A stretch of 64,000 nt of DNA from Treponema sp. (GCA_045643225.1 JAZUKJ010000119.1:31927-95926); one strand, 5' to 3'; positions 12,949 through 30,693 are shown, counted from the first letter of the stretch. Numbers and translations: made by a program. The notes: generated from the letters alone by a model not told the origin.

Positions 12949-13009
12949 TCCGTTTTCCGGCGGATTTTACTGTTGAATAAAAAGTTTTTCTGTAGTCAGA
13001 GAGAATAGT

Positions 13010-13312
13010 ATGGGTAAGATTCAAGTTGACATGCTGGGTACGAATTTTACTATTCGTGCGAAAGAAGATGACGCTTATTTAAGTAAGCTTTATTCATATT
13101 ACAAGGAAATCACAAATACAATCCAGATAAATAAAAATCTTGACAATCCTCTGCAAGTAAGCATATTGGCTGGAATCACTTTGGTTGATGAATTGCTAAA
13201 GGAAAAGGCCCAGAATATTGTCAACAAGGAAGCCGAAAAAAATTCTGATAAGGTTCAGCTGGCCGAAAAGATGACCGCTGATATGATTGACAAAATAAAT
13301 CAGGTCCTCTAG
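13010..13312 (+). CDS. zapA: Cell division protein ZapA
   Basis: IQVDMLGTNFTI...EDDAYL...SILAGITLVDEL pattern. Confidence 0.8.
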   Translation: MGKIQVDMLGTNFTIRAKEDDAYLSKLYSYYKEITNTIQINKNLDNPLQVSILAGITLVDELLKEKAQNIVNKEAEKNSDKVQLAEKMTADMIDKINQVL

Positions 13313-13331
13313 TTTTTTTTGGGTGTACAGT

Positions 13332-13808
13332 ATGGAAAATAGTGCCGCTGCTTTTACTGTATGGCTGGACGCAGATTCCTGTCCTGCCGTGGTCAGAAAG
13401 ATATTGCTAAAAAATTCCATTACGAATAATGTCCCCGTCATTTTTGTCGCAAACAGAAACATCCCCGCCGATATCGAAAGCGAACTTTTTTCAATGGTGG
13501 TCTGCTCTGCTGAACATGGATCAGCGGACGACTATATTGTATCTCATATTGCAACCGACGATGTGGCTGTAACAAGGGACCTGCCTTTGGCGAAACGGCT
13601 GCTGGAAAAAGGCTGCACTGTCATGAACGACAGGGGAACCCTCTTTGATGAAAGGAAGCTGAAGGAAATGCTGGAGGAAAGGGAACTCAGCATGCAGATG
13701 GCAGCGCTGGGAATCCGGACCGGTGGAACCTCTGGAGGCTTTGGGAAAGAGGAAATTAAAAAATTCGCGGACTGTTTCTGTAACCTTCTCAGGAGCCGAA
13801 TCCAATAA
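13332..13808 (+). CDS. YaiI/YqxD (DUF188) family protein
   Basis: WLDADSCP, SADDYI, VTRDLPLAKRLLEKG, MNDRG motifs. Confidence 0.88.
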   Translation: MENSAAAFTVWLDADSCPAVVRKILLKNSITNNVPVIFVANRNIPADIESELFSMVVCSAEHGSADDYIVSHIATDDVAVTRDLPLAKRLLEKGCTVMNDRGTLFDERKLKEMLEERELSMQMAALGIRTGGTSGGFGKEEIKKFADCFCNLLRSRIQ

Positions 13809-13819
13809 TCTTTTGGAAA

Positions 13820-15085
13820 TCAGCTTATGGATTTGTTGATGGCCTCAAGCCTGTCCAAAATCTTCAGGAAAATATCTACAATCTCTGGGTCAAACTGTTT
13901 TCCGCTTTGACCTTTTATTTCGTTCACAGTATCTTCCAGGGTCCATTCCTTTTTGTACGAACGCATGTGACGTAGGGCATCATAGACGTCCGCCAATGAT
14001 ACGATACGTGCCGCAAGAGGAATGTCTTCTCCTATTAATGGCTCGATTATGTCAGGGGTAGGGTCGCCTGGAGCAAAGTCCATGTAGTCGGCCACTTTTC
14101 CAGGGTACCCCCGCTGGTCGCCGTTATAGTACTGATGGTGGTTAAGGCACACATCGATGGCCATTTTATCCACATCGCTTTCAGGAGGAGAAAAAATCTG
14201 TGCCCCAAGAATTGTGTGGGCCTTCATGATGTTGCGTTCCTCGTCTGTCAGAGGGCCGTCCTTTTTTAGAATCTTGTCCGGGATGGCGACTTTTCCAACG
14301 TCATGGCATTTTGCGGCCTGCTTAAGGTTGTTTCTGTATCTGTATCTTTCCCGGTCAGGAATATTGTGTCTGCTGGCATAGATATCATATATTTCGACAG
14401 CAAAGCTTGATACCCTTTCGACATGGGCGCCGGTCTCTTTTGGATCCCTGAAGCCCGCCGTCCTTACAAGACGGGATATGATGTGCTTCGTGAGGTATGC
14501 GTATTCATAAATCTGGCCAATGTTTGTGGCGAAATGGGATATGTAGAATTCCGCGTCGTCATCGAACGGGATGTTCTTTCCCTTCGCATCCCTGGCGTTG
14601 ATAATCTGCAGCACACCAAGGATTTTTCCGTTTGTCATCATCAACGGTATGGTGAGCATGGATGTTGTATGGTAGCCGGAAATCATGTCCGTGGTGGAAG
14701 AAAAATTGTATGGACGCTTGACGGTCTTTGCATCGTCCTCGTATTCCTCCATATTGTACACATCCGGTATGTTGATTGTCTTCTTGGAAAGGGCGCAGTA
14801 TCCACAGATGGTTTCGCTGTTCACCGGGAACGAGAAGGCAAGGTAAGGCAGTTTTTCTCCTTTCTGTAGTTTTGCCTGCTGGGTATAGTTTATGCTGTAC
14901 TTGATTTTTAACGTGTTGTTGGATTCGTGGTAAGAATAAATGGAACCTGCATCCGCGTTTACAATTTGGCAGGCGGAAATGAGAATGTTTTCAAGGAGCA
15001 AATCCTCGTCCTTGATTTCACTGAGCATACGCTCAATCTGTGTCATTTGCCTGAGTTTGGTCTGATGCTTGTCCAGTTTTTTCAT
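13820..15085 (-). CDS. GAF + HD-GYP domain c-di-GMP phosphodiesterase
   Basis: N-terminal GAF (DAGSIY; SMLTIPLM; GVLQIINA); RDPKETGAHVERV, HDVGK, NHHQ, GYP, RIVSLADVYDAL. ATG 15085 is supported by the promoter position. Confidence 0.9.
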   Translation of the reverse strand: MKKLDKHQTKLRQMTQIERMLSEIKDEDLLLENILISACQIVNADAGSIYSYHESNNTLKIKYSINYTQQAKLQKGEKLPYLAFSFPVNSETICGYCALSKKTINIPDVYNMEEYEDDAKTVKRPYNFSSTTDMISGYHTTSMLTIPLMMTNGKILGVLQIINARDAKGKNIPFDDDAEFYISHFATNIGQIYEYAYLTKHIISRLVRTAGFRDPKETGAHVERVSSFAVEIYDIYASRHNIPDRERYRYRNNLKQAAKCHDVGKVAIPDKILKKDGPLTDEERNIMKAHTILGAQIFSPPESDVDKMAIDVCLNHHQYYNGDQRGYPGKVADYMDFAPGDPTPDIIEPLIGEDIPLAARIVSLADVYDALRHMRSYKKEWTLEDTVNEIKGQSGKQFDPEIVDIFLKILDRLEAINKSIS

Positions 15086-15111
15086 AAGCCCTTTTTTCCC
15101 TTTGGACGGTA

Positions 15112-15140
15112 ATGATAGCAAAAAACAACGAATTTTTCAA
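15112..15140 (-). promoter_or_regulatory. sigma70 promoter for the HD-GYP gene
   Basis: Minus strand: TTGAAA, 17 nt ending TGc, TATCAT. Confidence 0.7.
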
Positions 15141-15399
15141 TAAGTCTAGAGAATTTTGACTTTTCATTCAAGGGTTTGGTTTATGATTTTTTTTATCCGC
15201 GTCCTTTCCGTGTGCTAAAAGTCGGTCCCGCTTATGCATTTCTTTGTCCAGATGATGCATTTTTCCCAAAAATTCATTTTATTCATAGGGAAACCTCTAA
15301 ATATTTCTAAATTTTTGCAACCTTTTTGGCTTCCGGTGGTCAAATAGATTAAAATATGTCAATTTTTATAAAAGTTTTGACAGATTAGGGGTTTACTTT

Positions 15400-16419
15400 A
15401 TGGAAAACATTATACCGATTTTTTTCGCGACAAATGACAATTATGCACCTTACTTGGGTGTCGCGTTAAAATCCATGCTGGAGAATGCAAGCAAGTCTTA
15501 TTTTTATAAAACATATGTTCTCATGACAGATTTGTCAGAGGATCATAGAAATCGTTTAAGTCAGGTGGTCGCCGATTACAAGAATGCTTCAATCGATTTT
15601 GTTGACGTGGCAGCCGAATGTAACAAGATGGGCGGCATGCTTCACATGAGGGACTACTACTCAAAGGAAACCTATTACCGTTTCTTCATTTCACCGCTTT
15701 TCCCTCAGTATGACAAGGTTATATACCTGGACAGCGATATTATCGTCAAGGGCGATATCGCCGACATGTACAACGAAGATATTGGAGATAATCTGCTTGG
15801 TTCTGCCGTTGAGGAAGTTGTCTACCTTAGCGAGGAACTTGGGGCCTATTCGGAAATGTGTCTTGGGGTACCGTGGAAAGATTATCTTGGTGCCGGAATC
15901 CTTGTTATCAATTCCAAGTTGTTCAGGGAGGAGCATGTTGAGGAACAGTTCGTCAATCTGCTCAAGGACTATAAGTTTACGGTCGCCCAGGACCAGGATT
16001 ATTTGAACGTAATCTGCTTGGGAAGAATCCATTACCTGAACCTTGGATGGAACAAGACAGCCTTCGTTAATCCTGATTTTGATGACAAGGATCTGCAGAT
16101 TATCCACTACAAGATGAGCTGGAAACCATGGCTCAATGACAATGTTACCTACGAGGACTATTTCTGGAAATACGCCGACGGTTCTCCTTTCTATGATGAA
16201 ATCATGAAGATAAAGAAGTCCTATACAGACGAAGAAAGGGCCAGGGACGATGTGGCAGGAAAGAAACTGATTGAGACCTGTCTCAAGGATGCATACGATC
16301 CTGAAAACTATTTCTGCACCCAGAAAAAACTTGGCAATCCACAGTTGAAGGAGATTGTCAAGAAGCTCAATACCTGCAAAAATGCATTCATGAAACCGGA
16401 AGTTTTTAATCTGGACTAG
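15400..16419 (+). CDS. Glycosyltransferase family 8
   Basis: IFFATNDNYAPY, YYRFFI, VIYLDSD (DxD), QDQDYLN, IHY...KPW. Confidence 0.92.
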   Translation: MENIIPIFFATNDNYAPYLGVALKSMLENASKSYFYKTYVLMTDLSEDHRNRLSQVVADYKNASIDFVDVAAECNKMGGMLHMRDYYSKETYYRFFISPLFPQYDKVIYLDSDIIVKGDIADMYNEDIGDNLLGSAVEEVVYLSEELGAYSEMCLGVPWKDYLGAGILVINSKLFREEHVEEQFVNLLKDYKFTVAQDQDYLNVICLGRIHYLNLGWNKTAFVNPDFDDKDLQIIHYKMSWKPWLNDNVTYEDYFWKYADGSPFYDEIMKIKKSYTDEERARDDVAGKKLIETCLKDAYDPENYFCTQKKLGNPQLKEIVKKLNTCKNAFMKPEVFNLD

Positions 16420-16428
16420 GAATTGTTT

Positions 16429-17295
16429 ATGGCACCTGAGAAAAATAAAGAACGTCTGGCCGTTATTGAACGGATAAAGGAATATGAAAAAAAAGGCTGG
16501 TGGAACAAGGATGTTGAGGACGACCCTCCAACTGTTCCTCTAAAGCCGGGGCAGTGCGACTATCTTAATAAAAGCTTTTTCAGCTGGATTCAGATGAAAT
16601 TTGTCAACACCCAGGCCCGCCGCTTTATAAGGAACCTTGTAAAAAAAGGCCAGCTTGTTTTGGATCCTGTGGACGGACTTGAAAAATTCATTGCGATGAA
16701 GGATAAGGGCGCCATAATCACTTGCAACCACTTTAATGCTTTTGACAATTTTGCAATATACTATTGCCTTGAAAAATACATCAGACGCAAGCAGCTCTAT
16801 AAAGTAATCAGGGAGGGAAACTATACCTCCTTTCCTGGTATCTACGGGTATTTTTTCAGGCACTGCAACACCTTGCCTTTAAGCTCCAACTTTTCCGTCA
16901 TGAAGGAATTTATGAACGCGGTGGACACTCTGCTTCAGAGAAACGAAAAGGTTTTGGTCTATGCAGAGCAGGGGATGTGGTGGAACTACAGAAAGCCTCG
17001 TCCAATGACCAATGGAGCCTTCCGCTTTGCGGTCAACAACAATGTTCCTGTCATTCCGCTTTTCATAACGATGAAGGATACCGACAGTATTGACGGTGAC
17101 GGATTCCCAATCCAGAGATATACCCTTCATGTCCTGGACCCTATTTATCCTGACGCAAACAAGTCAAGGAAAGAAAATGAGTCTGCCATGATGGAAAACA
17201 ACTTCCAGCAGTGGAAGGACTGTTACGAAAAGGCCTACTCGATGCCCCTCACTTATGGGGATGATACAAACTTTATTGGTGGTGACAAGATTTAA
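16429..17295 (+). CDS. PlsC-like (lysophospholipid) acyltransferase
   Basis: TCNHFNAFD (HX4D); YAEQG in place of FPEG; GAFRFAV...PVIP. Confidence 0.85.
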   Translation: MAPEKNKERLAVIERIKEYEKKGWWNKDVEDDPPTVPLKPGQCDYLNKSFFSWIQMKFVNTQARRFIRNLVKKGQLVLDPVDGLEKFIAMKDKGAIITCNHFNAFDNFAIYYCLEKYIRRKQLYKVIREGNYTSFPGIYGYFFRHCNTLPLSSNFSVMKEFMNAVDTLLQRNEKVLVYAEQGMWWNYRKPRPMTNGAFRFAVNNNVPVIPLFITMKDTDSIDGDGFPIQRYTLHVLDPIYPDANKSRKENESAMMENNFQQWKDCYEKAYSMPLTYGDDTNFIGGDKI

Positions 17296-17298
17296 GCT

Positions 17299-18099
17299 AT
17301 GGACAAGCGAAAGGTTATCTATTACTCAGATGAACTCAACGAGGAATTTTCGTCAGCCCAGATTGATGCCATTGAAATTGATGAAAACTATAGATATGGT
17401 GATGCCGGCCTGTTGTGGAAATTGAAGCATTTTTTTATGTACAGGGTTGTGGCTTATCCGATTGCCTTCTTCTATATAAAGTTTGCGTGGCACCATAGGA
17501 TAGTGAACAGGGAGATATTGAAACCTTACCGCAAGCAGGGGTATTTTATTTTCGCAAACCATACCAACTCTGGAGCGGATGCAGTTATCCCTTCCTTTGT
17601 GAATCACCCGAAGACGGTCTACGTTATTGTCCATCCAAACAATGTAAGCATCCCCGGTCTTGGAAAATCAACCGCCTATATGGGTGCCCTGCCTTTGCCT
17701 GGAAACATGGGTGCCGCCAAAAATTTCATGGACGTAATAAAACTCAGGATGCAGCAGAAATCTGTAATCACGATATATCCTGAGGCTCACATATGGCCGT
17801 ACTATACAAAGATACGTCCCTTTACTGATGTGTCGTTCCGTTATCCTGTTCAATACGGGACCCCTGTATTCTGTTTTACAAATACATACCAGAAGAGAAA
17901 GTTTGGCAGGAAACCTAGGATTGTGACTTACGTTGACGGACCTTTTTTTGCGGAGGAAGGTCTAAGCCAAAAGGAAAAACGGGCTTCCCTTAGGGACCAG
18001 GTTTACGAAGCCATGTGCAGGGCCGCCGAAAATAACGAGGTTGAGCTTATCAAATACATCAAAAAAGAAGAAAAAACTGGAAGTGATAAAAATGATTAA
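17299..18099 (+). CDS. PlsC-like acyltransferase, second paralogue
   Basis: FANHTNSGAD; IYPEAHIWPYY; PVFC. Confidence 0.8.
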   Translation: MDKRKVIYYSDELNEEFSSAQIDAIEIDENYRYGDAGLLWKLKHFFMYRVVAYPIAFFYIKFAWHHRIVNREILKPYRKQGYFIFANHTNSGADAVIPSFVNHPKTVYVIVHPNNVSIPGLGKSTAYMGALPLPGNMGAAKNFMDVIKLRMQQKSVITIYPEAHIWPYYTKIRPFTDVSFRYPVQYGTPVFCFTNTYQKRKFGRKPRIVTYVDGPFFAEEGLSQKEKRASLRDQVYEAMCRAAENNEVELIKYIKKEEKTGSDKND

Positions 18100-18931
18100 C
18101 ATACTGTTCTGTGGAAACGACAAAGTGTTTGACGGTGCGTTGACTACAATGCTTTCTATCTTTAAGCGCACCACGACCGATGAACCATTCAAATTTTATA
18201 TCTACACGATGGATGTCTCCCATATAAAACCGGATTACAAGGCCTTTGATGACAATCAGATTGCCTTTCTGGACAAAGTGGCCAAGGACTACAACAAAGA
18301 GAATTCCGTCGTCAAAATTGATGTGGGCGAAATATACCGTAAGGAATTTTCCGGTTGCCCTAATGAGCAGTGCTACTGTTCCCCTTATACTTTGCTCCGT
18401 CTTTTTGCCGACCTGGTGCCTGGAATGCCTGACAAGCTTTTGTATCTTGATATTGACCTCATGTTCAATTCCGATATCAGAAAGCTGTGGGATATTGATG
18501 TAAGCGACTATGAATATGCCGCCGCGCCTGATCACTACGGAAAGCTGATACTTTTCTTTATCCGCAAATTTATCAACGCCGGGGTGATCCTGTTTAATCT
18601 CAAGAAATCCAAGGAGACGGGGCTGCTTAAAAAGAGCAGGGAACTCATAAAGACAAAGAAGTTGACCTTCGCTGATGAAAGCGCCATCATCAAAAGCACC
18701 ACAAGGCAGCTGAAGATAAGCCAGCGTTTCAACGACCAGAAGTTCCTGTACAAAAATACGGTCATCCGTCATTTTTCCAAGAGACTTTTCTGGACTCCAT
18801 ATCCGCATACCGCGAACATCAAGCAGTGGAAGGTGACCAAGGTTCATAAGGTGTTCGGCTACGAAAATTTTGATGACATCCTGTACGAATATATCTATTT
18901 AAAAAGAAAATTTGAGCTGGAAAACAGATAG
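18092..18931 (+). CDS. Glycosyltransferase family 8, second paralogue
   Basis: LLRLFADL, LLYLDID (DxD), INAGVILFNL, IRHF; ATG overlaps the upstream stop. Confidence 0.85.
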   Translation: MINILFCGNDKVFDGALTTMLSIFKRTTTDEPFKFYIYTMDVSHIKPDYKAFDDNQIAFLDKVAKDYNKENSVVKIDVGEIYRKEFSGCPNEQCYCSPYTLLRLFADLVPGMPDKLLYLDIDLMFNSDIRKLWDIDVSDYEYAAAPDHYGKLILFFIRKFINAGVILFNLKKSKETGLLKKSRELIKTKKLTFADESAIIKSTTRQLKISQRFNDQKFLYKNTVIRHFSKRLFWTPYPHTANIKQWKVTKVHKVFGYENFDDILYEYIYLKRKFELENR

Positions 18932-18995
18932 AGCGCCGTGGGGTAGGGGATTTTCCCTGAAGGCGGACAAGGACTAAAACTTTTTTCACTTAAAC

Positions 18996-19031
18996 GCACC
19001 TGCAGATTGGTTTCTGCGGGTGTTTTTTTTT
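18996..19031 (+). terminator. Rho-independent terminator of the GT8/acyltransferase operon
   Basis: GCACCTGCAGA-ttggtt-TCTGCGGGTGT plus T-run. Confidence 0.85.
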
Positions 19032-19066
19032 GTCTTTATTCGTGCCTATGGGGTTCGTTCATTTAT

Positions 19067-19102
19067 GGGAACCGCCAAAAATTACAATTTTTGGAGATGC
19101 CC
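19067..19102. repeat. Palindromic intergenic repeat, copy C
   Basis: GGGAACCGCCAAAAATT-AC-AATTTTTGGAGATGCCC. Confidence 0.75.
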
Positions 19103-19403
19103 TTTATAAATTTTATATTAAATTCCAATAAGTTTGCTATTGGTGGTGTTGAAATTTGACTTTCCTGCCGATATGGACACCGAGAAATTGTAACTAAAAA
19201 AGTTTTAAATAATTTATGGAATTTGATAAAGAATTCAAAAATTTTGTTTCAAATTTTTTAAATTACGGGTTATATTATATGGGAAGTAATCTCCAAAATC
19301 TCTTTTTTTGTTGGAGATTTTCGCATTTAATGAATGTTTTCGGCAGGTTCCGAAGCTTAAAGTTCGGGACGGTTTTGTTTATAGATATCTGAGAGGTATT
19401 TTT

Positions 19404-22400
19404 ATGGAAATGTTAAATGTAAAACTTTATCTCAAAAAATTCATATGGGCGGTTCCAGTTTCCCTTGTGCTTATTTTTTCAGGGTGCGAAATTGGTCTTG
19501 GTGCGGCCGTAGATATAGAAGCGCCTACGGTTGAGGTCATAAGCCCAAGGACAAATTCCTCCGTGGGTTCTACTTTTTACATTTCTGGAGCCTGCTTGGA
19601 TGACGCTGACGTTAAGACCGTCATAATCAAGCGGATTTACAAGAAAAACTTTGACAGCAATGGTGACTATCTGGATACCAGGGAATGGCCAACAATAGAA
19701 GAGCAGGCCACTGGAAAGACCCTGGGAAGCGTTACCCCTTATTTTGACAATCCAAGCAGATCCTGGCGTTGGGATTTCCCTCTTAACTATCTGGGAAATG
19801 GAAAATATTCCTGCAATGGATATGAACTTGATGGCATAAGTGATGGAAACTATATTGTGGAAGCAATCTCCATTGATGGTGGCGGACGTCCATCCACACC
19901 GGCTTCCCGTTCGTTCGATATTGACAATACCTCTCCAGTTTTCTTTGTTTCATCTCCAACTGAATTTGAGTCCTCCGTTGGATGCACCGACTACGGTCGT
20001 TCCGTTTCAATCCGCGGTGTCATTGCTGATACCCATGCCGTTGATGTCCTCCGTGTAAAAGCTTACGACAGCAACGACAGGTCTGAAATTTATCTTCCTA
20101 AGAATACTTTCACTGATTTTGATAAAGCCAACACATATGTTGTTCTCGCTGCCTATTCCACTGATTATGCGGAAGGAAGGACCGTATCCGACGAGGTACG
20201 TCAGCTGCATAACAACTACATGGCCTTGTTCGGGCAGGCCGGAAAGGTGACTTTTGATGTTGCCCTTGACCAGGTTAGCCGGCGCAAAATCGATTTGTAC
20301 ATCGAAGTGGAGGACAAGGCTGGAAATAAATCCACTGCCATTTATGGTGAGACTCCGCTTTCAAAGATTGTACGCGAGCAGATAAATGTCCAGGACCTTA
20401 GCTTTGAGGCCACCGACTGTATGAAAATAATGAACGGCACCTATTCCGGCGCCTTGAATACAGCGAAGATGGAAATCGTGAAGGATATCCTCACAGGCAA
20501 AAGGGATGGTGTTAACAAAAATGACTACATGGTTTACAAGGACGACCAGGGACATAACTATTTCTCGATTGCCGTATGTCCAAACAGTGCACCTAGCTAC
20601 AGACTTGAAGGATATGAGGTAGAGAACCTGGGTACGGAGGATGTAAAATATAATTCCGTATCAAAAGATGGTACCCTTTCCATTATGGTCAAGGCTGGAC
20701 GCGACGGTACAGCTATAGATCCTAAGGAACCAAACAAGTTGTCTCTAAAGATTTTTGACGTTGTTAATGGAGTGGTCGAGGCTGTCCCTTCATTTGTGAT
20801 TGACAGCGACCATAACAGGGACTGCTTGACATACGCGGTGGATGCAACCGTGAAGTCTATTTTTGATCTGGATGACGGATTTACAGAAAAGAACCTTTCC
20901 CTTAACATGAACAAGGTGTTCACCGCATTGGGCACCGAACATGCATATAAGGGCAACTCTAAGCACATACTGGTTGTGGAAGGCGAAGACAAGAATGGAA
21001 CAAAGCTGGTAAGCGATAAGATTTATGGATTCGCAATCCTTAGCAATGCCCGTTCCGCTATTGTTGATTCATTGGACAACTATTCCGTAAAACGCTGGAA
21101 TGAAGTCGGTAACGGATATTCCTTCCCTGTAACTATTGTCGATGCGGAAAAGAAAATCTCCGAGGAAAATACTGCCCTCACTTACAAGGTGGAATATTTT
21201 GAAGGCCATTATGTGACAGATTCCGCGATCGATGAATCCAAAATCATGTCCAGCTACACAAAGAGCGGATTCTTTGCCGGTAGCCAGCTGATCAGGGATG
21301 CCGGTTCGGAAACTTTGTTCTCCCAGGCAATCCCTCTTACAGCTTCCATTGCTTCTGTGCCTTTGCAGGGAAAGAACGTTACAATCCGTATTGCCGTTAC
21401 GGCCCACAATGGACAGGCTGACGGTGAAAAGACTGTGTTCCTTATCTATACGGACGGTGTTAAGCCAAACCTGACTGTGGCTGACAATCTTGAGATTGCA
21501 ACCACAAAGAAAGTAACTCTTGACAGCATCAACTATACAAAGAAGGATGGCGTAAATAATTATGAAATTGGAGGAACCGTTTCCGATGTGGATGGAAGCG
21601 GAATCGATTCCATAAAGTATAGTTTTGACAACGGTGCTACATGGGTAGACATGACCGCCATTCCAAAAATTTCTGCTGAATCTAACTGGACCCAAAAGCT
21701 TGCCGTAACTGAAGGCAGTGGCAAGAGCATTTGGTTGAAGGCATTGGACAAGGCTGGAAACGAATCTGATGTCCTGAAATATGAAAATATTACATTCGAC
21801 CTTTCCAAACCAACAGTCCTTTGCACATCTCCTGCATCCATAGCGGAATACTATCAGGATGTTCCGGCCATTGTCTTTACGGCGAAAGATGGAAACAAGG
21901 TTTCAGATATTAAAGTCAAAGCTACCCTTAATGGAAATCCTGCTAGTGTTACCGTAACTCCGTATGGATATAGAACCCCTGAGGCAACCGCAACTGTTAC
22001 CGTTCCTGCCACGGACGGTAAATGGGAATTGACAGTTTCCGCCGAAGATGAACTTGGTCAGAAATCCGAAAACATAAAGGTAGGCTTCACAAGGGATAAG
22101 ACCGCTCCTGTATTCAAGGGGGATTTTAAGATCACTCCGGATAAGGTGGGGGATTACTATACAACTTCCATGCTCAAGATTGACGGAGAATGTATTGATA
22201 CAACCGAACTGAAGGAAGTGGAATACTGGATTACCTCCGGCGGTGTTGATTCTGAACACAAAAAGGATCCTGCCACGGATCACAAATTCTCAATAACTCC
22301 AACAGACTTTGTCTCTGCGAACGGCGGTGTCAATGTTCTCCATGTTGTGCTCACTGATTTGGCCGGAAACTCCAGTGCCGAAAAGACAACCACAATTAAG

Positions 22401-25400
22401 ATTGATACCGGAAAACCGAACCTTTCTAAAGCATATTTTGATGACCAGAGGGACAAGGTTGACCTTGGTGCTGTACCTGCAAAGGTATTCTTTGGTGACA
22501 AAAAGGCTGTCAACATGAGCCTCTACGGTCTTGTATCTGATGACGGTGGAATTGCATCAATGACTTTCGCCATCGCAGGAACAGAGGTTTCTCCATCCCT
22601 GACATATACAACAAAGTTGCTGAACGAGGATAGCTCTGAAACGGATTACACGACTGCCTCATGGGTTTCCTATGGAAGCATCGGTGATAAATCCCAGATA
22701 AAGGCATGGAAGGCTGATTTTACCCAGGCAGTCGTAAATGCTGCATCCCCTGCAGGCGGAACCCTTGCCATTAGCGCAACCGATAAGGCCGGACTTGTAA
22801 CGACATTGACAAATGTTCTTTCATTTACAAAGGATTCGACAGCACCTGTCATTGAAGTAAAGGACCTGGTTGACGGAAAACTTATCAAAGAGGACAACCT
22901 GGTTGCGGACAACCTTGTGGTTCATGGAACCTGGAGCGACATTGGTGGATCAGGAACCGCTGTCCTTGAATGTAAAGTAAATGGAAGCCTCCTTGACAGG
23001 ACCTTGATTGACGCTCCATCTTCAACAACCGCAGTTGCCTGGACAGTTGAGATTCCAAAATCAAGGATACCTGCCGGCGACGGAAAGAGCATCGTATTTA
23101 CAGCAAGGGACTCTGTAGGAAATGAAACCGTAAGGACCATCAGCGACCTGGTCTTTGACTACAAGTTGCCGGAGGTTGTTCCAGTCGTTCTGGATGAATA
23201 CTATCCATATTCACCAACAAACCTTGAAATCATTTTCCAGGGTACAGATGACAGGGGAGTGCCAACCGTTGAATTTGATTCCGCAACATTGGACGGAACA
23301 CCGGTTATACCTGAGAATATAAAGGTCAATGACGGAAAGAATTTAAAGATAACATTGCCTCGCGATGGTCTTACACAGAACGGAAAATGGGTTATCACTG
23401 TCCATGCGAGGGACCTTGCTGGACGCGATGGTAACGCATATACAATTTCAACTACCGTGGACGGCAAAAAACCAGGAGCCCCAACAGATTTCTATGTTGC
23501 TGGAACCGCCTATGATGCTGCAAGGCCTGCATGGAACAGGTCAAACCTTGTTCAGATTAAGGCCACCACGACTGATGTAGGCGCCGGAATACGTAAGGTA
23601 TATTATAAGATTCTGGACTCAACTGCGGTCGCGCCAACTGATCTGGTCAGCACAAGCGATGGCAGTGTGGCTGCATCATCCGGTAAGGAATTTAACCTTA
23701 CAGTAAGCGGCCTTTCAGAAAATGTTGGAACAAGGGCCTCCAAGGTCTACCTGCAGTCCGAAGATATGGCCGGAAACAGAAGCGATGTTACTTCCATTAC
23801 TCTGAACATTGACCAGACTAATCCTGAGGCTTCCGCTTCATATTATACATTTGATACAGGCGCGTCTCCTGTTTTGAAACCGGTATCCGGATTGATCAGG
23901 ATAAATGGTACAAACAGCATAACCGTCTATGGAAAACTGGTGGAGGCTGGTTCCGGCGTAAAGGAACTCAAGTTCATGTTCAATGGAACAGAGAAAAGGC
24001 CTGACGCCCTTGGCTATTCTGTCTCAGATATAACGAACCCTGCTTCCCTGCCAGTGTTTACGGACTCAAAGGAAAATGCAAAGTCCTTTATGGCTACCTT
24101 CGACAACTCAAAGGTGCTTGAGGGAGTGTTCTCAGTTAAGGTAACCGACAATGCCGGAAACTATGTACAGCAGAACCTGTTCTCGATTGCAAAGGATGAG
24201 GTTGCACCTTCACTGTCCCTTAGAAGTCCAGCGACGTTAATCCGTACAGGAACAGATGCTCTGGCTCCTGCGACAGTGACAAGCGTTAACGGACGTATAA
24301 ATATTACTGGAACTGCAACGGATGATGATCTTGATTATGTAAAGCTCTCCTATAGCATCGACGGTACTGGTTATAATGAAATAGATACAAAGACAGGTTC
24401 CGATGCGTACAACTGGAGCTTCGATGTTGACTCAACAAAGAAGAGCGGTTCCGCAATTAAGTTTATGGACGACACAACCTATGCTGGAGTTGCAAAGACT
24501 TTGTACATCAAGCTGGAGTCAAAGGACACAGCAGGCAACGAGACTGTAAATGTCTACGAATATCTTGCTGACCCGAATACTGACCGCCCTGTAATCAACT
24601 TCACCAACGTGGACCTTAAGTCTGGATCCGACGCCATGTCAGATTCTACCTCCGTTTGGGTAAAGAGCGACACTATCTTTGGAACCATCAGCGATGACGA
24701 CGGTATTTCTTCGTTCCAGTACAAGATTGGATCCGGCACATACCAGAACGTTCCTGTGAACAACGGTTCCTGGACAATCAGGCTGGGCGATGATGGTGAA
24801 ACCAAGATCAGCTTCAAGGTGGTTGACAGCCAGGGAACAGAGTTTACTTCAGAAAACAGTCAGTGGTTGACTCCAAAGTTCCAGAACAGCACGGATACTA
24901 TCGACAACTACGCTTATTTGAACCTCAAGAAAGATACAAAGGCTCCTGAAGTTGGGTCAGTTGAGTACAGCGTAAAGCATTTGACAGACTGGTCCGAATA
25001 CGGACAGGATTATATTAAGGGCCACTTCGGTGGTACCTATTCGGATATCAAATTCCGCTTCAGCCTTTACGATAGCAACGGAATTGATTCCGTGAAGATT
25101 GAATTTGACGGTATCTCGCCGGCAGTGGATGAAACTATGGACCCTGCGAACGGTGTCTACACAAGCGATGCTATTCCTCTTACATCTATTGTGACCGGTA
25201 ACGTGACCGCAAATATCACTGTAACCGATAAGGCCGGCGGTACAACCAAAAAGTCCGTAAGCTTCTATGTTGACAACACGGCTCCTACAATCGACCTGAC
25301 GGTTCCTACATCTCTTGTAAAATCCGCCGCAACCCTTTACGGAAGCGTAAACGAACTTGGCGGAAAGGTCTACTTTGCAATCACAAAGTACGGAGCCGAT

Positions 25401-28400
25401 GCACCTGAGACCACTGTTATTGCCAGGGGTAGTGAAAATGCTGCAAAAAGGTGGAAGCTGATTGATGACGCATCCCTTTCATGGACTGTATTCTTCGACG
25501 ATGTTGAAGGAGCCAGCACCGGATGCCACACTGACATGTTCAAGTGGTACCTGACCGAGGATATGGGAGTTGGAGTTGATCCACAGCTCAACGGAACAAG
25601 ATGTACTGTCAACAACATCAACAACCGTACCTACACAGACGATACCGATGTCTCGTTCCATGTCATGGCTGTAGACCAGTGTGGAAACTTCTCTGTCGAG
25701 ACAAGAAAGATTTCCGTAAACCCACAGGGAGACAAACCTTCCGTGGTTATCTCAAAGCCTGACACAGGCGCTAAACTTGGAGGTTCCATTGTAATTATGG
25801 GAACAGCCGAGGACAATATTGAGGCAAAATATGTTGGTCTCATGATTGATGTAAACGGTGACGGAAGATGGAACTACCAGGATATCGCAAAACTCAAGGA
25901 AGACAACTCCGAATATAGATTTGGAAAGATTGTTGTCGGCGAATCCTTTGACAATGCGACACCTGTTTCAGGCAGGGCTGACGACTATTATAAAGACTAC
26001 GCACTTAAGCTGGATGTAAAGGGCGGCGGCTGGGACGTTACCGTTAACTCCGATGGAAAATTGAATCCGGAGGATGGTTCCGATGGTGAGGTCACGGTTT
26101 GGGCCTTCGCTGTTGATAACGACATGAACACCAGCAGTGTCATCAGTTTTGCATCTGATTCTCCTATGGAAAAGAGGGTATTCAATATTGATAAATACTC
26201 TCCAAAGATTGGAAACATTTATTTGACAAATGGATCCGGAGCCAGTGTGGCATATACCGACGGAATGGCTGTAAAGGGTGAATGGATCTATGAAGCCGAC
26301 ATATTTGATGACACAGGTATCTCCGATATCAGTGTCGGTTCAACAGATTATGTAAAGGACGGTACAATCCTTGAAGCCTCAAAGGTCGAGGTCCTTCCAC
26401 CTAGCTTCGGGGATAAGGGATACCACATCAAGGTCCCTGTAGGAAATGGAACCGACGGATACATTGGTACGGACCTGAAGGTCATTAGTTTTAAAGAAAT
26501 CAAGAATGTAGCTCCATTGGAAGGAACTGCTACAATTAACCTTAAGATTGATAACAAGAAACCTGTAATCGCCCACCGTGGTGATGGTGCAAGTCCTGCT
26601 GCCGGATACAACATTAAGCATTACGGACTTGACGGAAGGGTAGTAAACGTCAACGGATACTACACATTCGGTTCCTATGCAAATGAAGACTCCAATGAAA
26701 CTGCCGGTGTGGTTACAAACCAGACAGGTGTAAAGCGTGTTGCCTTCTACTTCACAAGGGACATTCCATCTGAATCAATTAGCAAGCTTTACGACGTCAT
26801 GATCAAGAATGGCGAAACAGGTAATGCAATCGATTCCTACGCCTCAAACCTTACACATGAAGATGGACTCTACTGGAAGACAAAGACAGTTTCCAGTGTT
26901 TCCGGAGTTCAGCTGACTATTGATTCCGCTGACCAGAACATCCATGCAGGTGGACTGGTAAAGGTCAACGGAATGATTTATAGAATAAAGGGTGTATCCG
27001 GTACATCAGTAACTTTGGATGCCTCTTCAATTTCTGTAGAAAATGGTGACACAGCTCTCTTCGCTCTTGCAAATGTTGTTGACAACACAACACAGGAAGG
27101 GGATGGCAGCGGCGCCAAGTGTGAAGAAAAATATCCTTACGGATACTGGAAGAACGGTAGATATGATGACGGCGACTTCATGATTGAAAGCTTTGTAAAG
27201 CAGGGCTCAAGATGGTCATGGGAAGCCAGCGTCAATACAAAGAACATTGGTGATGGAAGCGCAAAGCTCAACTACGTAGTGTTCGATGATGCCGGAAACT
27301 ATGATACAGAGTCCGTGGATATCTTTGTCGGAAACAATCAGCCTCGTGTTGCGGGACTGGTATTTGAAACAGACGACGACGACAACGGAGTATATTCAGA
27401 GATTGAAACTTTCCGTGCCTATGAAAACTACTATAGAAACGGAATTGATGGTATAAATGAAGTCACCAAGGCGGTGTTCCCGGTTGGAAGTACCGCTGGT
27501 TCTCCAAAGGCTCTTGCCAAGGTCCACAACAAGATACGTCTCCAGCCGGAGATTGTTGGTGGAAACAATAGTCTTAGCTATAGCGCGGCCGTTGGAGCTT
27601 CAGCCCTTGGTTCAGGTGCATTCAAGGATATTTCTGGAAATGCTCTTGCCGGAAGCGATTCTGGAGTAACCGGAGCCGTTGAATTTACGGTAGCAAAGAT
27701 GGTTAGCGCTTCAGTCGCGGATGGAATCAAGGCGCTTTCTCTGAAGATTACGGACCAGACCCCTGGTGAACCGATGTCCGCTGACATTGATGTATGGCTT
27801 GATTTTGCCCTCAATGACACTGGCGCACCTGTCGCCAAAATCCGCCCGCTTTACTGGAACGGAAAGGACGACAACAGTCTCTACCTTAATTCCAGGGAAA
27901 ATGGACACATAGAAGTTTCCTCTGATTTGTACTTCACTGGTACCACATTCACCGCTGCCAGCGGCCTTATGGACAAGGATCCTAAGGTTTCTGGAAAGAT
28001 TCGCCTTGAAGGTGTAATCAAGGATGACGGACAGATTAAGAGCGTCGCGCTTGCTTTGAACGGAACTGACAGAACCGTTGCCAATTACAGTAATGGACAA
28101 TGGAATATAGTTTCAACTTACGCAATGACAGGAACAGACATCCCTGCCAGCGGAGTTGGATTCGAAATTACAAAGGCCACCTACAACGACATGATTGCCT
28201 GTGGACACATCATAGAAGATGATGTTCCTGTCGCTCTGGAACTTGATGATGATGTTGAATACTTTACACAGGAATATGGCCATGTAATCAAGTGGACAGC
28301 CAACATTGACACAGAAAAACTTGTGGCTAACCTGGCTCAGACTGACTATGTAATAAAAGTAAAGGCCACTGACCGTGGAAACCCGAACTCAACCGGAGCC

Positions 28401-30374
28401 TATTCCGGTGGAAAGACCAATACTCCTTCAACCGCACAGTCCGGTGGAAACAAGAAGGCACCTGTAAAGGCTGACTTTACTGATAACTATAAGATGGATG
28501 TCGTTCCATACATCCTGAGCGTGGATACTGAAATTTCTGCCAAGAATGTAAGCAATCCATCAGAGGTCTCTCGTACTGCGCTTGGTCATTATGTCCTTAG
28601 GGCGGAGGCAAAGGATGGAACCGCTACCGGTGGAGAGACTGCAACCCTGGTTGGCTTTAACCTTGGCTCCAATACGGCTATTGTTGCAAAGGACAGAAAT
28701 TCAGGAGCCTATGTTGCGACCGTAAATTCCGTTACATCCCTCAACAATGTCAACAACAACAACGCCTGCGGAAGTTATGACGGTACAATGAATGATTCCG
28801 CCGACTACGAGGACAAGGAGGCATGGGCCTACAACAGGCAGCCAAACAACGCCAACAACGATAACCTCACCGATGATGTGTACTTTGATGTATGGCATAT
28901 AAATTCTTCCGCCGCTACACCAAATGACGGTTCCCTTGAGCAGGTGGTCATGAAGGTAAATCCAAAGAACGGTATGCCGGGAGTGGCTTTCTCCAACGGT
29001 TCCCTCAGGTTCTCAATGCCTGGCGACAACTCTAGTGATAATTCCTACAAGCAATGGTCACGGAGCTGGGACTTGTTCTCCTCTGTCACCCTTGCCTTTG
29101 ATGACAACGGAAATTCCTTTGGACTTGCCGCCGGAGGCGATATAAATGATAGCCAGTCATCAGACTGTGTTGCCCTTATGTCCAGCCGCTGGGGTACTGT
29201 TGGAAATGCCAACAGCTCTAACTTGAGTGGAGGCAACCATATAAATATTGAATCAATAGGCCAGTGGGGAAGTACTGGCCAGACTACCGGTTTTTCAGGT
29301 ACTGGGACAAGTACTTACAAACCTTGGTTTGTTGACAAGCAGAGGGTCATGTCACCTTCCATCGCCACAACAGTGAGCGGAACAGATACAAATGTATATC
29401 TGGCTTACTATGACAGCCTTAACGATGAAATCCGTTTCAGGAGAGGTACTGTGACAGGTGGTGCAATCACAAATCTGGATGCCAATCACATGTTTGCTAA
29501 CGCGTACAGTTCAAGCTTTGATAAATATACTACCAATGTTCAGCGTGTAAATGTGGCCGTCGCACCAAACACTCATGCCGGAGAATATGTAAGCATTGGA
29601 GTCGTTCCTGCTGGAAAGGCCGCTTCATCAAAAGATACCGTTGTCATGGCCTGGTACGACAAGCATGACCAGAAACTGCTGTTCATGTTCCACAATGATG
29701 CTCCAAGCATAAGAAAGAATACCACTGGTGGCTGGACATGCAGTCCTGTTGCAGTGTTTGGTGACAGGACAGGAATTGGAGAATATTGTAAGCTGACCGT
29801 GGATACTGACGGAAATATCCATATAGCCTGCTACGATAAGATAAACAGTTCCGTAAATTATGTATATCTCACAAAGGACAAGCTCACAGCTTCCTTGAGT
29901 GCTACTGATTTCCGCACCGCCGTGGTTGATGGCAACGGAACAGGAAAGTATCTGACGATCGACACCGCAAAGGATGCCGCCGGAAAAATGATTCCTTACA
30001 TTGGATACTATTCAGCGTCCTACGTTCTTCCAATGTCAGCCAGATTGACCGATTCAGCCCTTTTGACGAGCGGTGACCTGGATGGCTGTAAGATTGACGA
30101 CCAGGGAGTAGGAAAGTATACAGGTGCTTGGGAATGTTCAACCGTTCCAACAAACAAACTGTTGAACATGTCTCCTCAGGGCTTGTTCAATCATGTCAAC
30201 CTTGTGGTGCATAGAGATTCTAGCACTGGAAAAATCGCTAAAATAAAGACTGGAGCTTCCGCTGATGGAAATACAGGAAAGATTTACGGAAACGGTAGCT
30301 CAAATCCGTTGATGGGTTATGTGGTTAACAACGGTGGCTCCAAGACCACCTTTGAAACCGCACAGCTGAAATAA
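19404..30374 (+). CDS. Giant lipoprotein 1 (3656 aa): Ig-like repeat stalk with propeller-like C-terminus
   Basis: GAGAGG SD then ATG 19404; signal peptide ending LIFSG-C28, then EIGLGAAVD; ~19 D-x-x-x-P Ig boundary motifs; uninterrupted ORF. Confidence 0.88.
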   Translation: MEMLNVKLYLKKFIWAVPVSLVLIFSGCEIGLGAAVDIEAPTVEVISPRTNSSVGSTFYISGACLDDADVKTVIIKRIYKKNFDSNGDYLDTREWPTIEEQATGKTLGSVTPYFDNPSRSWRWDFPLNYLGNGKYSCNGYELDGISDGNYIVEAISIDGGGRPSTPASRSFDIDNTSPVFFVSSPTEFESSVGCTDYGRSVSIRGVIADTHAVDVLRVKAYDSNDRSEIYLPKNTFTDFDKANTYVVLAAYSTDYAEGRTVSDEVRQLHNNYMALFGQAGKVTFDVALDQVSRRKIDLYIEVEDKAGNKSTAIYGETPLSKIVREQINVQDLSFEATDCMKIMNGTYSGALNTAKMEIVKDILTGKRDGVNKNDYMVYKDDQGHNYFSIAVCPNSAPSYRLEGYEVENLGTEDVKYNSVSKDGTLSIMVKAGRDGTAIDPKEPNKLSLKIFDVVNGVVEAVPSFVIDSDHNRDCLTYAVDATVKSIFDLDDGFTEKNLSLNMNKVFTALGTEHAYKGNSKHILVVEGEDKNGTKLVSDKIYGFAILSNARSAIVDSLDNYSVKRWNEVGNGYSFPVTIVDAEKKISEENTALTYKVEYFEGHYVTDSAIDESKIMSSYTKSGFFAGSQLIRDAGSETLFSQAIPLTASIASVPLQGKNVTIRIAVTAHNGQADGEKTVFLIYTDGVKPNLTVADNLEIATTKKVTLDSINYTKKDGVNNYEIGGTVSDVDGSGIDSIKYSFDNGATWVDMTAIPKISAESNWTQKLAVTEGSGKSIWLKALDKAGNESDVLKYENITFDLSKPTVLCTSPASIAEYYQDVPAIVFTAKDGNKVSDIKVKATLNGNPASVTVTPYGYRTPEATATVTVPATDGKWELTVSAEDELGQKSENIKVGFTRDKTAPVFKGDFKITPDKVGDYYTTSMLKIDGECIDTTELKEVEYWITSGGVDSEHKKDPATDHKFSITPTDFVSANGGVNVLHVVLTDLAGNSSAEKTTTIKIDTGKPNLSKAYFDDQRDKVDLGAVPAKVFFGDKKAVNMSLYGLVSDDGGIASMTFAIAGTEVSPSLTYTTKLLNEDSSETDYTTASWVSYGSIGDKSQIKAWKADFTQAVVNAASPAGGTLAISATDKAGLVTTLTNVLSFTKDSTAPVIEVKDLVDGKLIKEDNLVADNLVVHGTWSDIGGSGTAVLECKVNGSLLDRTLIDAPSSTTAVAWTVEIPKSRIPAGDGKSIVFTARDSVGNETVRTISDLVFDYKLPEVVPVVLDEYYPYSPTNLEIIFQGTDDRGVPTVEFDSATLDGTPVIPENIKVNDGKNLKITLPRDGLTQNGKWVITVHARDLAGRDGNAYTISTTVDGKKPGAPTDFYVAGTAYDAARPAWNRSNLVQIKATTTDVGAGIRKVYYKILDSTAVAPTDLVSTSDGSVAASSGKEFNLTVSGLSENVGTRASKVYLQSEDMAGNRSDVTSITLNIDQTNPEASASYYTFDTGASPVLKPVSGLIRINGTNSITVYGKLVEAGSGVKELKFMFNGTEKRPDALGYSVSDITNPASLPVFTDSKENAKSFMATFDNSKVLEGVFSVKVTDNAGNYVQQNLFSIAKDEVAPSLSLRSPATLIRTGTDALAPATVTSVNGRINITGTATDDDLDYVKLSYSIDGTGYNEIDTKTGSDAYNWSFDVDSTKKSGSAIKFMDDTTYAGVAKTLYIKLESKDTAGNETVNVYEYLADPNTDRPVINFTNVDLKSGSDAMSDSTSVWVKSDTIFGTISDDDGISSFQYKIGSGTYQNVPVNNGSWTIRLGDDGETKISFKVVDSQGTEFTSENSQWLTPKFQNSTDTIDNYAYLNLKKDTKAPEVGSVEYSVKHLTDWSEYGQDYIKGHFGGTYSDIKFRFSLYDSNGIDSVKIEFDGISPAVDETMDPANGVYTSDAIPLTSIVTGNVTANITVTDKAGGTTKKSVSFYVDNTAPTIDLTVPTSLVKSAATLYGSVNELGGKVYFAITKYGADAPETTVIARGSENAAKRWKLIDDASLSWTVFFDDVEGASTGCHTDMFKWYLTEDMGVGVDPQLNGTRCTVNNINNRTYTDDTDVSFHVMAVDQCGNFSVETRKISVNPQGDKPSVVISKPDTGAKLGGSIVIMGTAEDNIEAKYVGLMIDVNGDGRWNYQDIAKLKEDNSEYRFGKIVVGESFDNATPVSGRADDYYKDYALKLDVKGGGWDVTVNSDGKLNPEDGSDGEVTVWAFAVDNDMNTSSVISFASDSPMEKRVFNIDKYSPKIGNIYLTNGSGASVAYTDGMAVKGEWIYEADIFDDTGISDISVGSTDYVKDGTILEASKVEVLPPSFGDKGYHIKVPVGNGTDGYIGTDLKVISFKEIKNVAPLEGTATINLKIDNKKPVIAHRGDGASPAAGYNIKHYGLDGRVVNVNGYYTFGSYANEDSNETAGVVTNQTGVKRVAFYFTRDIPSESISKLYDVMIKNGETGNAIDSYASNLTHEDGLYWKTKTVSSVSGVQLTIDSADQNIHAGGLVKVNGMIYRIKGVSGTSVTLDASSISVENGDTALFALANVVDNTTQEGDGSGAKCEEKYPYGYWKNGRYDDGDFMIESFVKQGSRWSWEASVNTKNIGDGSAKLNYVVFDDAGNYDTESVDIFVGNNQPRVAGLVFETDDDDNGVYSEIETFRAYENYYRNGIDGINEVTKAVFPVGSTAGSPKALAKVHNKIRLQPEIVGGNNSLSYSAAVGASALGSGAFKDISGNALAGSDSGVTGAVEFTVAKMVSASVADGIKALSLKITDQTPGEPMSADIDVWLDFALNDTGAPVAKIRPLYWNGKDDNSLYLNSRENGHIEVSSDLYFTGTTFTAASGLMDKDPKVSGKIRLEGVIKDDGQIKSVALALNGTDRTVANYSNGQWNIVSTYAMTGTDIPASGVGFEITKATYNDMIACGHIIEDDVPVALELDDDVEYFTQEYGHVIKWTANIDTEKLVANLAQTDYVIKVKATDRGNPNSTGAYSGGKTNTPSTAQSGGNKKAPVKADFTDNYKMDVVPYILSVDTEISAKNVSNPSEVSRTALGHYVLRAEAKDGTATGGETATLVGFNLGSNTAIVAKDRNSGAYVATVNSVTSLNNVNNNNACGSYDGTMNDSADYEDKEAWAYNRQPNNANNDNLTDDVYFDVWHINSSAATPNDGSLEQVVMKVNPKNGMPGVAFSNGSLRFSMPGDNSSDNSYKQWSRSWDLFSSVTLAFDDNGNSFGLAAGGDINDSQSSDCVALMSSRWGTVGNANSSNLSGGNHINIESIGQWGSTGQTTGFSGTGTSTYKPWFVDKQRVMSPSIATTVSGTDTNVYLAYYDSLNDEIRFRRGTVTGGAITNLDANHMFANAYSSSFDKYTTNVQRVNVAVAPNTHAGEYVSIGVVPAGKAASSKDTVVMAWYDKHDQKLLFMFHNDAPSIRKNTTGGWTCSPVAVFGDRTGIGEYCKLTVDTDGNIHIACYDKINSSVNYVYLTKDKLTASLSATDFRTAVVDGNGTGKYLTIDTAKDAAGKMIPYIGYYSASYVLPMSARLTDSALLTSGDLDGCKIDDQGVGKYTGAWECSTVPTNKLLNMSPQGLFNHVNLVVHRDSSTGKIAKIKTGASADGNTGKIYGNGSSNPLMGYVVNNGGSKTTFETAQLK

Positions 30375-30479: not shown

Positions 30480-30693
30480 TTTGCATATGAAACAGAACGT
30501 ATTTGGGGATATTTTATGCTGAAAATCGGAATTCTGCCGATATTTTGGTGAAAAACTGTAATTTCTCCAATATTTTACTGTTTTTTCTTTAAAAATTGAG
30601 ATTTTAGACTTATTATATATATGGACTGTTTCCCATCGTTAGTATTGGTGGATGCCATAGATCTTATTTACTTGTTGGACATGTGAGGTGCTT

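Follow-up and report, generated by a model that had tools for sequence, protein, structure and literature searches.

Two glycosyltransferase-acyltransferase modules in a Treponema operon: a candidate pathway for a sugar-acylated glycolipid

The locus described here raised the question of what is made by two glycosyltransferases (GTs) and two acyltransferases (ATs) encoded side by side in a treponeme. In a 64,000-nt stretch of DNA from Treponema sp. (GCA_045643225.1, JAZUKJ010000119.1:31927-95926; the window, with positions counted from its first letter), four co-directional open reading frames (ORFs) at 15400-18931 on the plus strand encoded, in this order, GT8a, AT1, AT2 and GT8b, with gaps of 9 nt between GT8a and AT1 and 3 nt between AT1 and AT2 and an overlap of 8 nt between AT2 and GT8b. 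The first-pass annotation, made from the sequence alone, had described four tightly packed genes with such junctions and a terminator of their own, and the coordinates, the junctions and the hairpin agreed with this. It had also read the symmetric GT8-AT-AT-GT8 arrangement as a dedicated pathway for a di-acylated glycolipid. That proposal is the best available reading, since the ATs are tied to the GT8s by fusion and pairing; its symmetry has to be replaced by two two-gene modules. In the form moderately favoured here, the operon would be dedicated to the synthesis of an alpha-glycosyl membrane lipid acylated on its sugar, and not to that of bulk phosphatidic acid.

A Pfam scan placed GT8a (6.8e-40, 137.7 bits) and GT8b (5.3e-14, 52.9 bits) in PF01501, with a gathering cut-off of 24.3, and AT1 (3.8e-12, 46.6 bits) and AT2 (1.8e-7, 31.5 bits) in PF01553, with a gathering cut-off of 23. 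Eighty genome loci around AT1 homologues were then fetched, and the four proteins together with clustered neighbours were mapped onto them. GT8a lay directly 5' of AT1 in about 75 of the 80 loci, which were nearly all of those with enough flank, and the order GT8a-AT1-AT2-GT8b occurred in about 26, all from Spirochaetota. Thirty loci, 10 of them from metagenome-assembled genomes (MAGs) of Clostridia/Oscillospiraceae, had the order GT8a-AT1-X, where X, the commonest third gene of GT8a-AT1, encoded a membrane protein of about 200 amino acids (aa) belonging to the CrtO family (PF18927, 1.2e-24); in all, a CrtO-like gene came directly after GT8a-AT1 in at least 33 of the 80 loci. Many genomes carried GT8a-AT1 alone, with or without the CrtO-like gene, and hence a single protein of the LPLAT fold. 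AT2 and GT8b always travelled as a pair: in T. bryantii (locus L024) GT8a-AT1-CrtO-like was followed by one unrelated gene and then by AT2-GT8b, and in locus L071 AT2-GT8b lay 5' of GT8a-AT1-CrtO-like. The order in the window was thus one permutation among several, and its symmetry has no evident meaning; the quartet is composed of two modules, GT8a + AT1 and AT2 + GT8b.

Natural fusions pointed to the same modules. The search with AT1 was exhaustive, covering 1.84 billion representatives with clustering at 50% identity, and yielded 105 clusters with E values no higher than 1e-30; among the best matches, many were about 600 aa long with AT1 in the C-terminal half. All four of the full-length matches of about 600 aa that were tested combined PF01501 with PF01553, two shorter matches carried a partial GT8, and five of the 80 loci encoded a single GT8a::AT1 protein (Pfam-confirmed for L056, 6029-7846). 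The second module was found fused in the order of the window, PF01553 and then PF01501, in AT2::GT8b proteins of 593 aa (L096, 1801-3579) and 535 aa (L097, 1819-3423) sharing 42-45% identity with AT2 and GT8b. Such recurrent joining of a GT to the AT subfamily speaks strongly for each AT working with its own GT.

The two AT2::GT8b fusions were part of a paralogous cassette (L096, 831-5657, and L097, 667-5499; Treponemataceae genomes G070, G059) that consisted of an unknown ORF of 304-311 aa, the fusion, a GT2 of 416 aa (Glyco_tranf_2_3) and an AT1-like acyltransferase, which suggests a wider family of GT + LPLAT modules. More distant relatives of AT1 were fused otherwise, one as a GT2::acyltransferase (P0219, 691 aa) and another as an acyltransferase::SAM-methyltransferase (P0250, 591 aa).

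When 201 evenly sampled Treponemataceae genomes were searched for both acyltransferases, AT1 was present in 42 and AT2 in 40; 35 genomes had both, seven AT1 only and five AT2 only, and in 29 of the 35 the two genes shared a contig and were about 3 kb apart or less. Two genera held most of the positives (26/38 and 9/12), while most genera had none. So patchy a distribution (42/201) means that the product is not a general treponemal glycolipid; the cassette is an accessory trait of gut/rumen lineages and not a universal treponemal pathway. Within the Firmicutes order to which one of the Clostridia loci belongs, strong matches to the AT2 profile were also obtained from 19 of 151 genomes, by which a restriction of AT2-GT8b to Treponema was ruled out, and gene orders found in Firmicutes were AT2-GT8b-GT8a-AT1 (L107) and GT8b-GT8a-AT1-AT2 (L108). 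Thus, conservation of the four-component set extends over two phyla, in permuted order and with the pairs intact. As regards the co-occurrence of the quartet expected from the first reading, the exact order did not hold beyond the roughly 26 of 80 loci, but the set did, being present in 35 of the 42 AT1-positive Treponemataceae genomes and permuted in Clostridia. In a quick maximum-likelihood tree of AT1, built from a sample biased toward the query and an unfinished search, the 13 Bacillota sequences formed one well-supported clade among those of Spirochaetota; such a topology would be compatible with a single transfer between the phyla, and it could do no more than suggest the direction of transfer. 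In a MAG named 'Clostridia bacterium' (G204), an AT2-GT8b pair 57-63% identical to that of the window (L091) lay on another contig than the GT8a-AT1-CrtO-like genes of the same MAG; this could be a real transfer or a mis-binned Treponema contig.

The motifs YAEQG and YPEAH in the acyltransferases, and QDQD and ADES in the GT8s, were all found in the translations. An HX4D block had been expected in both acyltransferases. It was present in AT1 as NHFNAFD with H101 and D106, invariant among 80 sequences in which YAEQGMWWNY was likewise invariant or nearly so, but the corresponding block of AT2, NHTNxxxD (NHTNSGAD in the window) with H88 and D94, is HX5D, one residue being inserted in comparison with AT1. 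It was invariant in 28 sequences (27 orthologues and the window's own). YPEAHIWP, also invariant, stood in AT2 in place of the FPEGTR block. Profile-profile comparison of the two families by hhalign gave a probability of 99.6% and an E value of 5.6e-25 over 218 columns, and both had the replacement motifs [TA]LPL and YPE..W..Y.K.RP as well as C-terminal motifs in common. By these profiles, AT1 and AT2 are paralogues that form one distinct LPLAT subfamily.

When the AT1 profile was aligned to PlsC of T. maritima, FLDR of motif II lay opposite PLSS and EGTR of motif III opposite EQxM, with invariant Met183 in place of the arginine; at the matching positions AT2 had ALPLP and PEAHI. AT1 therefore lacks both phosphate-binding arginines of PlsC (motif II, F-x-x-R; motif III, EGTR), and AT2 shares the replacement motifs. 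Since these arginines bind glycerol-phosphate in PlsC and in GPAT, their loss argues against a phosphorylated (glycerol-phosphate) acceptor. AT1 scored 28 bits against a cut-off of 102.95 on the model for PlsC proper (TIGR00530/NF011593), on which AT2 gave no match, so that neither can be counted as a member.

In confident AlphaFold (AF2) models with pLDDT values of 94.3 for AT1 and 81.7 for AT2, both proteins had the acyltransferase fold. Structural alignment of the AT1 model (VIA-align) gave Z scores of 15.6 with T. maritima PlsC (5KYM), about 15 with GPATs, 11.9 with PatA and 10.6 with LpxM, the range for PlsC and the plant and human GPATs being 14.2-15.6 over about 205-228 residues; the top Foldseek matches of the AT2 model were PlsC (5KYM, 2.3e-6), LpxM and PatA (2e-5). 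The likeness of AT1 to PlsC extended to the NH(X4)D block and to helical structure at the N-terminus, the site of the membrane anchor in PlsC. Apart from the exchanges of FLDR for PLSS and of FPEGTR for YAEQGM (AT1) or YPEAHI (AT2), the HX5D block of AT2 and the low TIGR00530 score, the differences included a highly charged first helix in AT1. As far as the models go, comparison of folds does not separate a sugar from a glycerol acceptor. The Pfam scan of AT1 and AT2 returned PF01553 only and thus did not place them in the PatA/LpxL-type family PF03279, a result that concerns family membership alone and is compatible with action on a sugar; in sequence searches of the PDB, AT1 alone had no match and the AT2 profile found nothing meaningful. 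Homologues in the protein atlas were named simply 'acyltransferase'.

The genome from which the window was taken comprised 3.03 Mb and was 99.5% complete. It contained seven PF01553 genes, four of which fitted the PlsC domain model far better than AT1 and AT2 (66-73 bits on TIGR00530), and two of these four had canonical motifs, NHQSLAD with FPEGTRS (L004) and NHRSVYD with YPEGTRN (L001). Separate PlsC candidates are therefore available elsewhere in the genome, and the suggestion that the two PlsC-like enzymes of the operon are atypical and not the housekeeping PlsC was borne out, both by these better NHxxxxD + FPEGTR candidates and by the missing arginines of AT1. GT8a and GT8b were the only GT8 genes of the genome. 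No LpxC was found, so that the GT8s are not enzymes of the lipopolysaccharide (LPS) core and this role was ruled out; they also scored only 78.6 and 21.4 bits against the cut-off of 461 on NF011718, the equivalog for WaaI/WaaJ-type LPS-core enzymes, and fell outside it. Neither was a phytoene/squalene synthase (SQS_PSY) found in the genome, by which a carotenoid aglycone and hence the carotenoid glycoside ester pathway were ruled out. The search of the genome for the UgtP/MGD-type diacylglycerol glycosyltransferase domain (PF06925), which does not cover diacylglycerol glycosyltransferases of the GT4 type, was negative. No member of the CrtO family (PF18927) lay in the operon itself; a stand-alone gene of this family (9.3e-15) was located outside the window at C32:4572-4877 of the same genome (L090, 1489-2043, minus strand), and this gene is the likely source of a third acyltransferase for the system. 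The closest loci to that of the window, at 88-89% amino-acid identity, came from rumen MAGs named 'uncultured Spirochaetaceae', followed at about 60-66% by many rumen/gut Treponema including T. bryantii.

GT8 enzymes are retaining transferases of sugars from nucleoside diphosphates. In 73 GT8a sequences (72 orthologues and the window's own), the DxD motif (YLD[CS]D), the QD[E/Q]D block and H236..KPW were conserved, the first and the last of them being invariant; in 31 GT8b sequences (30 orthologues and the window's own), YLDxD, NAG..LFN and RHFSKRLFW, which includes H227, were invariant and D[E/Q][S/D] was kept. Both proteins thus have the DxD and the downstream histidine of GT8 enzymes without variation. 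The contrast that had been drawn between ADES in GT8b and QDQD in GT8a did not prove distinguishing, because the Q/E position of this D-Q-D block varies within both orthologue groups (50 GT8a sequences with E and 23 with Q; 17 GT8b sequences with E and 14 with Q), as is ordinary within a family. The closest solved relatives of GT8a were the GT8 domain of Klebsiella WbbM (6u4b, 6.8e-26) and LgtC, the Neisseria alpha-1,4-galactosyltransferase (1g9r, 1.1e-21), with which it shares the DxD, the D-Q/E-D block and the histidine. LgtC and WbbM extend lipooligosaccharide (LOS) or O-antigen, whereas the genome of the window has no lipid A pathway, and the likeness does not include a C-terminal extension of about 90 aa in GT8a, which serves as the linker to AT1 in the fusions. 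A tandem second GT8b, about 58% identical to that of the window, followed the quartet in L010 (7223-9019), one of the closest relatives, and in L055 (8615-10415); glycan length may vary between strains.

No transmembrane helix was seen in the four translated proteins and, without use of a signal-peptide predictor, no obvious N-terminal hydrophobic export signal. AT1, AT2 and GT8b were basic, and AT2 had a hydrophobic N-terminal helix resembling the membrane anchor of PlsC; these features fit a peripheral action at the cytoplasmic face of the membrane.

Known systems in which a GT is coupled to an acyltransferase offer the nearest parallels. In the synthesis of mycobacterial phosphatidylinositol mannosides, the GT PimA and the monotopic acyltransferase PatA, encoded side by side, work at the cytoplasmic face, and PatA esterifies the sugar just added to the membrane lipid by PimA; PatA has its fold in common with AT1 and AT2. 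However, PimA belongs to GT4 and not to GT8, PatA is of the LpxL-type family with a His/Glu dyad where AT1 and AT2 have the H..D block of PF01553, and the lipid is an inositol lipid, for which genes are lacking in the system of the window. We know of no natural GT::AT fusions as a feature of the PimA/PatA pathway. In the CrtQ/CrtO pair of staphyloxanthin synthesis and the CruC/CruD pair of carotenoid synthesis, the GT is likewise followed by an acyltransferase that places a fatty acid on the sugar. CrtO acylates the glucose of staphyloxanthin, and its family supplies both the commonest third gene of GT8a-AT1 and the copy elsewhere in the window's genome. In carotenoid glucoside esters, CruC adds the glucose and CruD the fatty acid (PMC5822342). 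Both of these pairs use a GT2 where the present system uses GT8s, and the CrtO-like gene lies outside the operon. By analogy, the logic of the pathway proposed for the window would match that of PimA/PatA, CrtQ/CrtO and CruC/CruD, carried out by different families (GT8 and a subfamily of PF01553). What the window adds to these is the occurrence in a spirochaete, the unfused four-gene form, the evidence from AT2::GT8b fusions, and the finding that AT1 and AT2 are one arginine-less LPLAT subfamily.

In the proposed pathway, GT8a + AT1 and AT2 + GT8b would cooperate on the cytoplasmic side of the inner membrane in producing a fatty-acylated alpha-glycosyl lipid. Each retaining GT8 would add an alpha-linked hexose, probably from UDP-Gal/UDP-Glc, to a neutral lipid acceptor, likely diacylglycerol or glycosyl-diacylglycerol; the partner AT would then esterify a hydroxyl of the new glycoside from acyl-ACP (acyl carrier protein) or acyl-CoA (coenzyme A), and the CrtO-like membrane acyltransferase encoded elsewhere in the genome may add a further acyl group. 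We infer the acceptor, the identity of the sugars, the order of the steps and the attachment of the ester to the sugar and not to glycerol. The sugars are probably where the acyl groups are placed, and one lipid may carry two sugars and two acyl chains. Several observations weigh against this pathway. In structure AT1 comes closer to PlsC and GPAT (Z 15-15.6) than to PatA (11.9) and LpxM (10.6), which acylate sugars, so that the fold itself does not favour a sugar acceptor; the putative catalytic block of AT2 is HX5D and not HX4D; WbbM and LgtC, the closest solved relatives among GT8s, extend oligosaccharides and do not glycosylate diacylglycerol; the counts of co-occurrence are inflated because the genomes are akin to one another; and searches of the literature found no paper on the cassette and no characterised homologue.

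The alternative that survives best reverses the order of synthesis, with the GT8s glycosylating glycerol, glycerol phosphate or a lyso-lipid and AT1 and AT2 acylating the glycerol moiety, to give glycosyl-diacylglycerol without phosphatidic acid. The structural ranking of AT1, with PlsC and GPATs above PatA and LpxM, would agree with this, two acyltransferases would suit the two acyl positions of glycerol, and some eukaryotic GT8s, such as galactinol synthase, do take small soluble acceptors. The absence of a PF06925 domain from the genome might be added, except that it leaves diacylglycerol glycosyltransferases of the GT4 type possible. We nevertheless consider this order of synthesis unlikely: the pairing and fusion of one GT with one AT is better explained if each sugar that is added becomes acylated than if one glycerol is acylated twice, the many genomes with only GT8a-AT1 (with or without the CrtO-like gene) have a single LPLAT, and the missing phosphate-binding arginines speak against a glycerol-phosphate acceptor.

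A second alternative, to which we give still less credence, is that no lipid is involved and the GT8s extend a surface polysaccharide or glycosylate a protein, the ATs O-acylating the glycan. Polysaccharide enzymes such as WbbM do belong to GT8, as do the protein glycosyltransferases of serine-rich-repeat adhesins, and the operon is followed by two proteins of about 3600-3700 aa, the first of them with an Ig-like domain, that might serve as substrates. These giant proteins, however, were not conserved beside the cassette, even L010 and L011, the closest relatives, being no exception, the neighbours varied widely between loci, no polymerase, flippase or accessory-Sec genes accompanied the cassette, and the operon is closed by its own terminator; moreover, enzymes with the LPLAT fold are lipid acyltransferases in every solved case that was matched. 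The view that there is no special pathway, AT1 and AT2 being redundant PlsC paralogues for bulk phospholipid beside GT8 genes of the LOS/LPS-core type, is scarcely credible and has largely been refuted already: it agrees with the database name of the homologues, '1-acyl-sn-glycerol-3-phosphate acyltransferase', and with LPS 3-alpha-galactosyltransferase as the best NCBIfam match of the GT8s, but those NCBIfam scores are far under the cut-offs (28 vs 103 for AT1 on the PlsC model), the GT::AT fusions are recurrent, the arginines of the PlsC motifs are absent, the genome has canonical PlsC candidates elsewhere and no LpxC, and presence in 42 of 201 genomes is unlike a housekeeping role.

Beyond the sugar-acylated glycolipid pathway itself, a broader and distinctly tentative proposal can be made. 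AT1 and AT2 may represent a new LPLAT subfamily in which sugar hydroxyls have replaced glycerol-phosphate as the acceptor and every enzyme is tied to one GT (GT8a, GT8b or a GT2), and the modules would build a poly-acylated oligo-hexosyl lipid that would be a major envelope glycolipid, possibly of the outer leaflet, in rumen treponemes that have no LPS, and a membrane or anchor glycolipid in gut Clostridia, the cassette having been passed between the phyla. The envelope glycolipids of gut/rumen treponemes, which lack LPS, are poorly defined, and those in the membranes of uncultured gut Clostridia are just as little known; lipids of this kind often have immunological activity. With about 105 clusters (50% identity) matching AT1 at E below 1e-30 and occurrence in two phyla, the cassette is widespread. 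It is also compact, so that expression should be easy, and its natural fusions provide single-protein test objects. Identification of the product would give a function to thousands of genes mis-named 'PlsC' and define a new acceptor specificity in the LPLAT fold.

Table 1. Features of the operon and its surroundings in the window
Feature	Position	Strand	Description
GAF-HD gene	13820-15121	-	433 aa; GAF + HD/HD_5 protein
Candidate sigma-70-like promoter	15326-15355	+	TTGGCT-18-TAAAAT; weak; within the intergenic region 5' of GT8a
GT8a	15400-16419	+	339 aa; family-8 retaining glycosyltransferase, acidic
AT1	16429-17295	+	288 aa from ATG; LPLAT/PlsC-fold acyltransferase; hallmark gene of the module
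AT2	17299-18099	+	266 aa; paralogous LPLAT acyltransferase
GT8b	18092-18931	+	279 aa from ATG; second, more divergent family-8 glycosyltransferase, basic
Intrinsic terminator	18996-19035	+	Stem 18996-19023, 11 bp, 6 G-C pairs, then T-run; TTTTTTTTGT
Giant ORF 1	19308-30374	+	3688 aa
Giant ORF 2	30688-41526	+	3612 aa

The features of the operon and its surroundings are listed in Table 1. An in-frame TTG at 16423 is an alternative start for AT1. The intergenic region 5' of GT8a was 278 nt long and separated the operon from the divergent GAF-HD gene; the candidate promoter within it, found by a consensus scan alone, had 9 of 12 consensus matches, and such sites were no more frequent than in shuffled sequence. 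An Rfam scan of 13000-20000 found no RNA element or leader. The operon is closed by the intrinsic terminator, whose hairpin is strong.

The product of the divergent gene is possibly a signalling protein of the HD-GYP type, and conservation of the gene upstream of the cassette was limited to L010 and L011, the two closest relatives. Other neighbours of the cassette differed from locus to locus, and a link of the operon to this gene or to the downstream giant Ig-like proteins was ruled out, neither being kept with the cassette beyond the closest relatives. In six loci (L054, L059, L066, L068, L071 and L079), a VCA0040-like/DUF368 gene for an 'undecaprenyl phosphate translocase-like' protein (PF04018) lay convergently 3' of the quartet, which may be coincidental synteny. 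The two giant ORFs of the window were arranged in tandem just 3' of the operon, and the first 1000 aa of the first contained a match to the Ig-like domain Big_13.

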